Shown here: one piece after another, positions 36,704-39,653 of the stretch
Layout: each line of letters opens with the position of its first letter
Position numbering within the stretch: the first letter of the stretch is position 1
Virus record (IMG/VR): IMGVR_UViG_3300045988_027069
From: a virus
Reading direction: 5' to 3' (one strand)
Length of the DNA: 42,495 nt
The notes under the pieces: generated by a model
Told to the model about the DNA's origin: nothing
What the model saw: only the letters and a program-made list of their open reading frames with translations
Databases searched by the model: none
Made by a program: the position numbers and the translations under genes

Positions 36704-37135
36704 CTACACCTCCTGTATGTCGATCCCGTACTTGGATCGCATCATTTTCTTGTTGCGCAGGTACTCCTTTGTGCGCGTGGCCGTTGATTTCACGTCCTCC
36801 ACCACCAGCTTCCCTCCGAAGCGATAGGAGAAATCCGCCGTGTAGCGGATCGCGCGGATGCGCTGTCCGACCTCGGTTATGTAGCTCTCCTGCAGCGTAA
36901 ACTGCGGCTGGAGCCGAAGATCTGTAATGATCTCCGCGCGGAGCATCGCCATCAGCTCGTCGTACCGCCGCGCCTCTTTCTGGCTATCGAATTTGATTCC
37001 CGCCCGCTCTGCCGGAGCATTTCGGTACTTCGCGGTGCGCTTCTTTGCCTGCTCCTCCTGGAGCGCCTGCCGCGAGTAAAGCTCCCGCATTCTCGGCGGC
37101 ATGTCCGCCATCGATTCAAATCTCAGCCCGCTCAT
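36704..37135 (-). CDS. DUF1064-like protein (putative nuclease/resolvase fold)
   Basis: IKFDSQKEARRYDEL...RYTADFSY...VVEDVKSTATRTKEYLRNKKMM matches the DUF1064 pattern. SD GGAGGAAAGA. Confidence 0.65.
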   Translation of the reverse strand: MSGLRFESMADMPPRMRELYSRQALQEEQAKKRTAKYRNAPAERAGIKFDSQKEARRYDELMAMLRAEIITDLRLQPQFTLQESYITEVGQRIRAIRYTADFSYRFGGKLVVEDVKSTATRTKEYLRNKKMMRSKYGIDIQEV

Positions 37136-37686
37136 TCTTTCCTCCATCCATCTTTGCACCGCAGCTCGGGCAATGCATTGTACCTCCTTTTTCGTAACCC
37201 GTAACTGCAAAAATCGTCTACATCCCTCACCGGCGTAAAAGTGTTCTCGTTCGCGTATTTAAAAATCGAATTTGAGCAATTACAATAAACGCCAGTCTCT
37301 CCATCATTCCTTTCATACAATTCTCCGTGTTTACAGTCCTTGCAGCGCACTACCGATACCACATCAACGGTTGGTGCATCTTCAATTTCAAATTCTTCCG
37401 ATAGCCACTTGAATACATTCGCAAGGCAAAACGAGCCGAACCCAACGTGATATTTTTTATCTGTCGGATCAAAATACAAAATGTTGTAATACGGTTTTTC
37501 AGCCGATCCACAAACAAAGATTTTGGCAAAGTTGGTCTTTACCTTACTGAAACTCACTTCGCAGCCTCCATTTCCTGCAGCGCCCGCTTGGCCTTCTCGC
37601 GGGTCAAAAATACGGTTTCCCTTAAAACAGCGCGGATAATAGGCGTGTTTATGCGATGATTCGTTCCATTTAGTCAGTCTTTCCAT
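37132..37686 (-). CDS. Hypothetical protein (184 aa), AT-rich, Cys-rich C-terminus
   Basis: MERLTKW... start with an upstream GAAGGAAAGGA. ATGA overlap with the next gene. Confidence 0.6.
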   Translation of the reverse strand: MERLTKWNESSHKHAYYPRCFKGNRIFDPREGQAGAAGNGGCEVSFSKVKTNFAKIFVCGSAEKPYYNILYFDPTDKKYHVGFGSFCLANVFKWLSEEFEIEDAPTVDVVSVVRCKDCKHGELYERNDGETGVYCNCSNSIFKYANENTFTPVRDVDDFCSYGLRKRRYNALPELRCKDGWRKE

Positions 37687-37691
37687 TCTGT

Positions 37692-38159
37692 CTACATCCT
37701 TTCCTTCAGAATCGTAATGTGGAGTTGGCGTCCAAGCCATTTCAACCCATTTTCCGTGAGCGTGTACCATGTGCTGACTATTCCTACTTTTTTCTGGACA
37801 ACGTCACGCGGCAGTTTGTCTAAAACTCGATTCCCGGAAAGTGTGTCTTCATAGTAATTCCTGTATGGACGGTAAAACGCCTTTCCATGCCGGTGATACG
37901 GTCGCTTATGGTCAAGCCCGACCATGTGCTTGCAGATTTCAAGCAATCTTGCGTATTCTTCCACCGTAAAGTTCATCTCGATGCCCATATCCAACCCCAT
38001 AACGCCAATCGCGCCCGTGTGTTCTCTGTCTCGTTTTTCCACCCAACTCCGAGGATGCTTGCAGCCGAGCCGACCGTCGCTTGTTTCATAACCGTATTTA
38101 CCCTCACTTTCTGGGCAGACATCTTCCGGATCAGAAAGTGGGCAACATTCGCAAATCAT
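37692..38159 (-). CDS. Hypothetical protein (155 aa)
   Basis: SD GGAAGGAGA lies 7 nt before the ATG. Confidence 0.6.
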   Translation of the reverse strand: MICECCPLSDPEDVCPESEGKYGYETSDGRLGCKHPRSWVEKRDREHTGAIGVMGLDMGIEMNFTVEEYARLLEICKHMVGLDHKRPYHRHGKAFYRPYRNYYEDTLSGNRVLDKLPRDVVQKKVGIVSTWYTLTENGLKWLGRQLHITILKERM

Positions 38160-38621
38160 TCAGATTTCTCCTTCCTCCGGCGTTTCCGGCAAGCCGCGCC
38201 ATTCCCACGCATTCTTGTCGAGATGACACTCACTGCATTTGCACGTCTTTGATTTACAGTTGGAGCAGTCGCGCGTATCGCACGCATACTTGCAAGTCTT
38301 GCAGCTCCGCGCATCCGCGAGGTCTGCTAACGCCGCGTCCCTCTCGGCTTCTGCCTCCGCCTGCTTCCGCTGAGCAAGAGCAATCACCATATCCTTCCAC
38401 TCAATTTCTTTGCGAAGGGATTCAAGCGCACTTGCTTGTCCATCCGGAAGCACCACGTTCTCGGCGGTCAGGCGCTCGATCACGTTAGCAGCCGCAAACT
38501 CGATGTATTCCCGCCGATCTTGGATTTCTCCGACCTTGCAGTTTTCGCACGCGTCGTCGTGTCCAAGCCCCTTCGCGCAGCACCGCAGCGCCTGCACGAT
38601 TTCCTTTTCCTTGTCTGTCAT
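38160..38621 (-). CDS. Cys-rich coiled-coil hypothetical protein (153 aa)
   Basis: SD GGATGGAGGA before ATG 38621. C-terminal CKTCKYACDTRDCSNCKSKTCKCSEC. Confidence 0.6.
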   Translation of the reverse strand: MTDKEKEIVQALRCCAKGLGHDDACENCKVGEIQDRREYIEFAAANVIERLTAENVVLPDGQASALESLRKEIEWKDMVIALAQRKQAEAEAERDAALADLADARSCKTCKYACDTRDCSNCKSKTCKCSECHLDKNAWEWRGLPETPEEGEI

Positions 38622-38669
38622 ATATCCTCCATCCCGCGGCCACCTTGAGCCGCTCAATCGCGGTTTGTT

Positions 38670-39653
38670 CTAAGTCCATCGGTTCAGCTCCTCCATCAAT
38701 GCCTTAAAAATCGGGTATGCCTGCTGCGGCACTACGGCGTTTCCGAGGCATTTAAGTCTGTCCACCCTGGCGGGAATCCCATGAGCCACTCTACCCACGT
38801 CGGGTTCAGCTGCCCAGCAACGTCCGTCCGCAAGCTCCTGTGATTTCCCCCACCGTGCGTCCCCTGCGCATCCGCTGCACATGGTGTCGTAAACAGCTTC
38901 ATTGCCACTCTCTGCGTCAGATTGCATTTGCCCGGATCTTTCTGCCGGCTTGGCGGCACAGATTTCAGCGTGTCTTTGTATTCGTTCGCACGCGGCGGCG
39001 GCCACAGCCCTTTCGTCCGGGCTAACACGTGCTCCCGCAGATTGCTCACCCCCCCATGTACGCCCTGATTGCTCGTAAATGTCGTTTTCCCGGCTGCGAG
39101 CAGGTTGACCTTCTTTTCTGTTGCTATCGTGCAGCCAGCCACCGTCGGTGTCGGCCACATCTGCGATGCCGACGAAGAACACCCTCGATCTTCTGTGCCA
39201 AGCTCCGACAGCCGCAGCCTCAAAATTAAACACGACGACGTGATAGCCAGCACGCTCCAGATCCTTGACCACCTGCCCGGCGGCAATCTTGATGATTCCA
39301 GGAACGTTCTCGCCGACAACGCAACGCGGGCGCAGCTCGGTGATAACTCGGAGCATCTCCGGCCAGAGGTATCGATCATCCCTTTTGCCCTTTTGCTTTC
39401 CAGCCACGGAGAAGGGCTGGCAGGGGAATCCGCCGGAAATAACGTCAACTGTTCGCATGCCTGTCCGCTCATAAAAACTCTCCTTTGTCAGCGTCCGGAC
39501 GTCGCGCCAGCGCGGCACGTCCGGCCAGTGCTTTTCCAGCACTTTCGTCGGGTAATCGGCAAACTCGCATTGCCCGACGGTCGTAAATCCTGCCCACTCG
39601 GCAGCTAGATCCAGCCCGCCGATCCCGGTAAACAGGCTCAGATGCGTCAGCAT
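38670..39653 (-). CDS. DNA (cytosine-5) methyltransferase, uninterrupted frame-A ORF of 327 aa with an anomalous central segment
   Basis: Motif I FTGIGG, motif [11 protein letters not shown], motif VI GENV, motif [14 protein letters not shown], motif [10 protein letters not shown]. The segment between VIII and X is low-complexity and uses atypical codons (see findings). Confidence 0.8.
38732..39472 (-). CDS. Alternative-frame ORF (246 aa) nested in the C5-MTase gene; its 3' 135 codons carry MTase TRD/motif-IX-like sequence
   Basis: SD AAAGGAG lies 7 nt before ATG 39472. MWPTPTVAG..., LWPPPRANE..., [12 protein letters not shown]... and [19 protein letters not shown] are all in this frame. Confidence 0.35.

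Follow-up and report, generated by a model that had tools for sequence, protein, structure and literature searches.

A phage gene for a DNA (cytosine-5) methyltransferase, judged from its sequence and by comparison with known enzymes, probably specifies two polypeptides, both encoded by the same piece of DNA but in different frames. The gene lies in a DNA stretch of 42,495 nucleotides, IMG/VR record IMGVR_UViG_3300045988_027069, which is analysed here in full and called the window. Its longer open reading frame, ORF A, would encode the catalytic chain, alpha, and a second frame within it, ORF B, would encode a chain, beta, that carries the target recognition region and motif IX. The nested alpha/beta architecture is already known among C5 methyltransferases, and the window is a new phage-borne case of it. 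What appear to be new are the breadth of its occurrence, the placing of the recognition region in beta on the basis of selection, and a segment of about 20 codons that is selected in both frames; the literature searched held no description of any of the three. On a wider claim we are evenly divided, namely that the gene belongs to a very large and ancient family that is marked by a fully nested pair, a small domain in the +1 frame, long stretches that are translated and unselected, and the roughly 20 doubly selected codons.

Table 1 Features of the methyltransferase locus, in coordinates of the window
Feature	Position	Strand	Description
ORF A (alpha)	38670..39653	-	327 aa + stop; motifs I-VIII, linker, pre-X motif, motif X
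ORF B (beta)	38732..39472	-	246 aa + stop; +1 frame of A, fully nested; N-terminal 104 aa unconstrained, then WPTP-type repeats and motif-IX-like block
Alpha catalytic part, aa 1-164	39162..39653	-	Motifs I, IV, VI, VIII; frame A selected, frame B not
Beta N-terminal 104 codons	39161..39472	-	Overlaps alpha motifs IV-VIII; open; own amino acid selection not detectable
Beta selected core, aa 105-239	38756..39160	-	MWPTP / LWPPP / LFTTP repeats and motif IX; frame B selected
Alpha linker, aa 165-279	38817..39161	-	Low-complexity reading of the beta core; stop-free, unselected as protein
Doubly selected segment, ~20 codons	38753..38812	-	Beta motif-IX region (QLNP to TDL) and alpha pre-X reading
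Alpha C-terminus with motif X	38673..38752	-	LGNAVVPQQ at 38747-38721; selection back in frame A
Shine-Dalgarno-like AAAGGAG	39480..39486	-	7-nt spacer, then beta ATG 39472-39470

ORF A runs without an internal stop through motifs I (FTGIGG), IV (GGFPCQPFS), VI (ENV), VIII (RRSRVFFVG) and X (LGNAVVPQQ), and the uninterrupted frame with these five motifs, first described in a sequence-only reading of the window, is borne out by the sequence and by Pfam (Table 1). The Pfam DNA_methylase match covers only aa 3-169 of ORF A, equivalent to profile positions 2-167 of 324. ORF A also matches TIGR00675 (dcm) and the PHROG family phrog_363, 'DNA methyltransferase' (E = 1.8e-80, aa 1-321), and ORF B matches phrog_1008, likewise 'DNA methyltransferase' (E = 1.3e-23), meaning that both frames have PHROG families of this name. 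NCBIfam has no model for beta, and Pfam searches with an A-B-A chimera, the beta core and the C-terminal half of alpha returned nothing beyond the N-terminal DNA_methylase match. AlphaFold2 models were of low confidence and gave no structural support, with a mean pLDDT of 39.6 for beta (58-sequence alignment) and 30.2 for alpha (43 sequences), the latter without recovering the known catalytic fold.

The same reading had placed the repeats and the motif-IX-like segment in the +1 frame, and they are indeed found there, in an ORF that is open from ATG 39472 with the AAAGGAG motif where it had been reported. The frame-B stop upstream of this start is a TGA at 39490-39488, and the beta stop at 38734-38732 falls inside the stretch coding for motif X. 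Within the motif-IX block, L-N-P-x-W-V-E-W-L-M-G is invariant across 18 diverse aligned members. Computed over the central 405 nt, GC3 reaches 68.1% for frame B against 54.1% for frame A, matching the earlier figures of about 68% and 54%. The glutamine codons agree in part: frame B uses CAG exclusively (5 CAG, 0 CAA), as stated, and frame A has 6 CAA and 1 CAG where a hand count had given about 7 CAA of 8.

The pair of ORFs recurs widely. Two human-gut phage scaffolds with approximately 80% nucleotide identity carry it (A of 275 and 317 aa, B of 209 and 247 aa), with central segments that differ in length between these two and the window. In a distant podovirus the gene annotated as a methyltransferase corresponds to the frame-A ORF, with four WPTP repeats and a motif-IX-like block present in its +1 frame. 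Searching a large protein collection with ORF B gave 4973 matches at E <= 0.001 among the 8000 candidates scored, and with ORF A at least 8000 candidates matched. The beta core retrieved 3450 cluster representatives, and nearly all of the 150 matches listed lack motifs I, IV and VI and are B-type ORFs. Taken together, metagenomes supply thousands of alpha and beta ORFs of the family, and species genomes supply 544 loci. In a sample of 80 viral loci from IMG/VR (30-94% identity, 77 untruncated), frame A carries motifs I, IV, VI and X, whereas the WPTP and EWLMG peptides are in frame B, with a handful of exceptions that bear indels or are truncated. Frame A is open from motif I to motif X in about 71 of the 77 untruncated loci, and the exceptions are due to single-base indels or one nonsense codon.

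A second sample was drawn from 185,579 species genomes, one genome per species, and was keyed solely on the peptide WVEWLMGF; it gave 544 confirmed loci, 80 of which were analysed. Motifs IV and X both lie in frame B-1 in 67 of the 80, and 66 of these 67 have no frame-A stop between the two motifs. A query with the whole of B biases the test for stop purging in the upstream stretch of beta, but the loci chosen by WVEWLMGF gave the same result; B reaches 5' of motif IV in every one of the 69 loci whose motif IV could be identified. None of the 80 has a single-frame layout. Their hosts include Bacillota, Actinomycetota, Chloroflexota, Pseudomonadota, spirochaetes, Planctomycetes, Patescibacteria and one archaeal MAG. 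The closest locus is in an Oscillospiraceae MAG (82%), which suggests that the Oscillospiraceae are the host clade of the window's phage. Methyltransferase loci that are almost the same (91-94% beta identity) are present on IMG/VR contigs of 42.0-42.5 kb, which match the window in size, and the window probably represents a complete phage or prophage of gut Clostridia.

Existing annotations treat the pair unevenly. GenBank records of Paenibacillus larvae phages hold nested CDS pairs, both named 'DNA cytosine methyltransferase', whose products are of the alpha and beta types. For the E. coli phage vB_EcoM_SHAK7693 (L173, 1089-1955) the annotation includes alpha but omits a beta ORF of 256 aa, and in a set of metagenome gut contigs (L005-L011) beta is called and the first ~60 codons of alpha are uncalled. 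Around the gene itself, Pfam gave no match for eight neighbouring ORFs, and by this measure no restriction enzyme was detected beside the gene. The downstream ORFs 38160-38657, 37692-38159 and 37132-37770 are without a Pfam match. Many relatives have a PAPS-reductase-family gene (PF01507) adjoining the methyltransferase pair (immediately downstream in L005-L011; 443-1117 in L004).

A few relatives depart from the common layout. Locus L057 (IMGVR_UViG_3300008360_000132) is a clean in-frame fusion that passes from alpha motif VIII to the beta repeats and motif IX, and six others (L033, L034, L054, L055, L072 and L126) contain either indels of a single base in their central part or a nonsense codon in alpha; these could be natural variants, products of decay or assembly errors. 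In three beta-type proteins (P0240, P0228 and P0161), one frame continues through motif IX, a spacer of 30-45 aa, the pre-X motif and motif X, a layout with a single switch that resembles that of M.AquI; the family hence contains both types of split.

Substitutions among relatives reveal which frame is selected where. From motif IV to motif VIII they concentrate at the third positions of frame A, and A exceeds B by far in amino acid identity, B being about level with the third frame. In the centre they fall at the third positions of frame B, and amino acid identity is far higher in B; purifying selection on the frame-A centre, which had been named as evidence that would speak against a displaced segment, was not found in the homologues, where conservation of A does not exceed that of the third frame. 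From the codon that follows '..GWTDL' onwards, the variable position is b2, which is a3, instead of b3. The order of amino acid selection is A (motifs I-VIII), B (repeats and motif IX) and A (pre-X motif and motif X), and this is the canonical order of motifs. A profile of the A-B-A chimera aligns with M.HhaI over residues 12-177 (E = 3e-36), and its IX/X part is collinear with M.HhaI 276-319, of which the motif IX part takes 276-289, at a non-significant 0.4 bits. Both the order of selection and the M.HhaI alignment agree with homologues that run collinearly as A, then B, then A, a possibility raised by the sequence-only reading.

About 20 codons around the motif-IX region are under amino acid selection in both frames. 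In a comparison of 63 different genome sequences drawn from many phyla, no variation occurs at the third positions of the B codons for Leu (CTG) and Asn (AAC), and those for Glu (GAG, 1.88 bits) and Phe (TTC, 1.50 bits) are nearly invariant. These bases are exactly the ones that E, P, V and P in the alpha reading call for. The same double constraint accounts for the 83-85% nucleotide identity of the stretch to unrelated phages. In three loci (L060, L061 and L076) and in phage Bloom, the alpha pre-X motif lies 3' of beta motif IX, past the beta stop and without overlap, and is still conserved as EPxIPRVAxGxxNRVxRLKxLGNAV. Since it is conserved where nothing overlaps it, the motif is functional on its own. 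The separated copy looks like the result of a duplication that parted the two readings.

These patterns are best explained by a two-subunit enzyme. Alpha would provide the catalytic AdoMet-binding domain with motifs I-VIII, then a spacer of ~115 residues, then the pre-X motif and motif X; the spacer would have to stay open because the ribosome has to reach the pre-X motif and motif X. Beta would be translated from its own Shine-Dalgarno sequence and ATG inside alpha, pass through ~104 unselected codons across alpha motifs IV-VIII, and continue into the recognition region and motif IX. Its core would be the counterpart of the canonical small domain, combining variable, modular target recognition by WPTP-type repeats with motif IX, and the two chains would assemble into an active enzyme, as in M.EcoHK31I. 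Sequence evidence and this analogy predict translation of both ORFs, their assembly and their activity. Beta rather than alpha is expected to set the specificity, given where selection acts, and the enzyme may protect phage DNA from restriction. The likely origin, we infer, is a canonical single-frame gene in which the frame moved by +1 past motif VIII and by -1 past motif IX. Such a split could be tolerated, since C5 methyltransferase fragments are able to complement one another.

Alpha might instead be active alone, beta being an accessory modulator or a specificity switch rather than an obligatory subunit. All the catalytic motifs are indeed in alpha, together with a conserved pre-X motif of its own, but nothing in alpha is selected between motif VIII and the pre-X motif, which leaves it without a conserved DNA-recognition region or a canonical motif IX. 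The beta core occupies exactly the place of the canonical TRD and motif IX, and the alpha chain of M.EcoHK31I is inactive by itself. We regard activity of alpha alone as unlikely.

The two-subunit enzyme is also consistent with the absence of stop codons from both frames where they are not selected. The synonymous codons of the selected frame were permuted and stops were counted in the other frame. In the centre of the window, no frame-A stop is seen against 2.5 expected (P ~0.03, for one gene). Across 66 genome loci, frame A has 1 stop in the centre against 197.3 expected and frame B has none from motif IV to motif VIII against 96.9 expected, with openness tested over 41-218 central codons for A and 83-119 codons of IV-VIII for B. 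The number of loci free of stops is 65 for the A centre and 66 for B in IV-VIII, against 7.5 and 13.2 expected. Neighbouring control ORFs had 298 off-frame stops against 310 expected and 333 against 397, and stop-free stretches of 120 codons were rare in them (4/66 and 1/66). Stretches that are open without amino acid selection imply that ribosomes must traverse them, which fits two products and is not needed by recoding.

Motif IV and the end of motif VIII stand 86 codons apart in the large majority of loci, across phyla, and this constant spacing may reflect the difficulty of indels where two ORFs stay open. The N-terminus of beta, which overlaps this region, has no selection beyond that imposed by alpha. 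A recurrent pattern there, QLTLFPxDSPAS...MTVTSGRKC...LTWK..., was considered as a real domain and rejected, its conservation being no better than that of the third frame; it is a by-product of alpha motifs IV-VIII.

Beta has a start signal of its own, which falls between alpha motifs III and IV. Most viral loci have a frame-B ATG 16 codons 5' of the motif IV Pro-Cys, with an AAGGAG-, AGGAG- or GGAGG-type motif 7-9 nt before it, and many have a further ATG 15 codons past motif IV with GAGG or AAGG ahead. Among the genome loci chosen by WVEWLMGF, the -16 ATG is present in 23 of 67, nearly always with AGGAG or a close variant, and nearly every locus has an SD-preceded start 5' of motif IV.

Both the stop counts and the start signal bear on programmed double recoding, in which ribosomes would move +1 once past motif VIII and -1 once past motif IX and so make a single A-B-A polypeptide. 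Such a product would agree with selection in exact A-B-A order, with switches no more than a few codons away from the VIII/TRD and IX/X borders, and with the collinearity of the chimera with M.HhaI. However, recoding would not require openness of either off-frame stretch, and both are purged of stops. Frame A has neither a stop nor a rare-codon pause at the first junction, and this VIII/TRD junction, inspected by eye only, differs in sequence between loci. At the IX/X junction there is no conserved heptamer, and the B codon after '..TDL' is variable. A conserved shift site of the type known from prfB, dnaX and phage tail chaperone genes was not found at these junctions. Beta moreover has its own conserved SD and ATG, and M.EcoHK31I activity is restored from separate alpha and beta genes. 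Given the stop purging, the beta start and the lack of a conserved IX/X slippery site, recoding is very improbable. Of the four options listed by the sequence-only reading, a genuinely overprinted second product is the one that fits.

Two further options from that list fare worse still. In one, a compensated double frameshift has destroyed a canonical methyltransferase, leaving a gene that is decaying or inactive. Two compensating indels would give this layout, and a minority of relatives have further indels or nonsense codons, but purifying selection acts on frame A at both ends and on frame B in the centre, the latter excluding an inactive remnant; both ORFs are preserved across phyla; and relatives swap recognition modules while both frames remain open. 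We give decay hardly any credence. Sequencing or assembly indels in the window are excluded, the identical frame layout being shared by isolate phage genomes and by hundreds of assemblies made independently in different projects.

In prokaryotes and phages, same-strand overlapping genes that are both long and deeply conserved are uncommon and frequently disputed. The pair described here is a clean case of overlapping genes: it is replicated independently hundreds of times, has a precedent in biochemistry, and includes a short, doubly constrained segment. Gene finders forbid long overlaps on the same strand, and consequently only alpha or only beta is kept. Annotations of phages and metagenomes therefore routinely lose half of the enzyme, or call beta 'hypothetical', and a specificity predicted from alpha alone would rest on unselected sequence. 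A natural split into a catalytic core and a recognition subunit with modular repeats is also a possible platform for retargeted methyltransferases, and if the wider family claim is true, recognition modules could be exchanged by swapping the beta core alone. M.EcoHK31I has already been used for methyltransferase retargeting (PMC2836561).

The catalytic part of the phage enzyme is that of canonical monomeric C5 methyltransferases (M.HhaI, M.HaeIII; PF00145), aligning as it does to M.HhaI. In contrast to these, the phage enzyme is not one polypeptide, and its TRD and motif IX are in another frame. ORF A differs from a full-length PF00145 protein, which has motifs I-X and the TRD in one polypeptide, in that its centre is without protein-level selection. 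M.AquI is, like the phage pair, a naturally split C5 methyltransferase; its two subunits come from adjacent ORFs, with the split in the variable region and motifs IX and X in the beta subunit. The subunit ORFs are said to overlap in the 1990 M.AquI paper. M.AquI has one frame switch, whereas in the phage pair motif X is back in the alpha frame and not in the second subunit with motif IX, which gives two switches, and beta is fully nested.

Paenibacillus phage Bloom (BLOOM_56/57; L092, 666-1721) belongs to the same family, with 36.8% tblastn identity over the beta core and the same nested layout. Its alpha pre-X motif lies 3' of the beta stop, whereas that of the window overlaps motif IX. The CDS pair is not discussed in the Paenibacillus larvae phage paper (PMC6070908).

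The likeness to M.EcoHK31I consists of two polypeptides, a nested beta and the same split of motifs, compared by published description. In the window, ORF B lies wholly within ORF A on the same strand and in another frame, alpha carries motifs I-VIII plus X, and beta carries motif IX, which aligns with M.HhaI PRECARVMGYPDSY with a weak score and in a collinear position. The phage beta, at 246 aa, is longer than that of M.EcoHK31I and starts 5' of motif IV; in the 1995 M.EcoHK31I paper beta is reportedly 176 aa and alpha 309 aa. M.EaeI, an isoschizomer of M.EcoHK31I, may be similar. No DNA-level match was found in 5,426 E. coli genomes, and tblastn with the beta core gave no match in plasmids.

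M.EcoHK31I itself comes from E. coli HK31 and has the target YGGCCR (Lee, Kam & Shaw 1995, per PMC2836561 and PMC3404938). Its beta is encoded wholly in another frame within the alpha gene and the chains must associate, alpha having motifs I-VIII and X, with the predicted TRD also placed there, and beta having motif IX (PMC2836561, PMC3404938). Activity in vivo was lost once the start of beta and two of its internal Met codons had been silenced, and the N-terminal part of beta is largely dispensable, with alternative internal starts (PMC2836561, PMC3404938). Alpha alone is inactive, and the alpha and beta genes on two plasmids reconstitute activity (PMC2836561). The enzyme belongs to a restriction-modification pair, whereas no nuclease was detected near the phage gene, whose neighbours are without Pfam matches. 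The published TRD of M.EcoHK31I is in alpha, whereas the region between motifs VIII and IX is here read in the beta frame by selection. If M.EcoHK31I is a member of the family, textbooks would be wrong in assigning its TRD to alpha.
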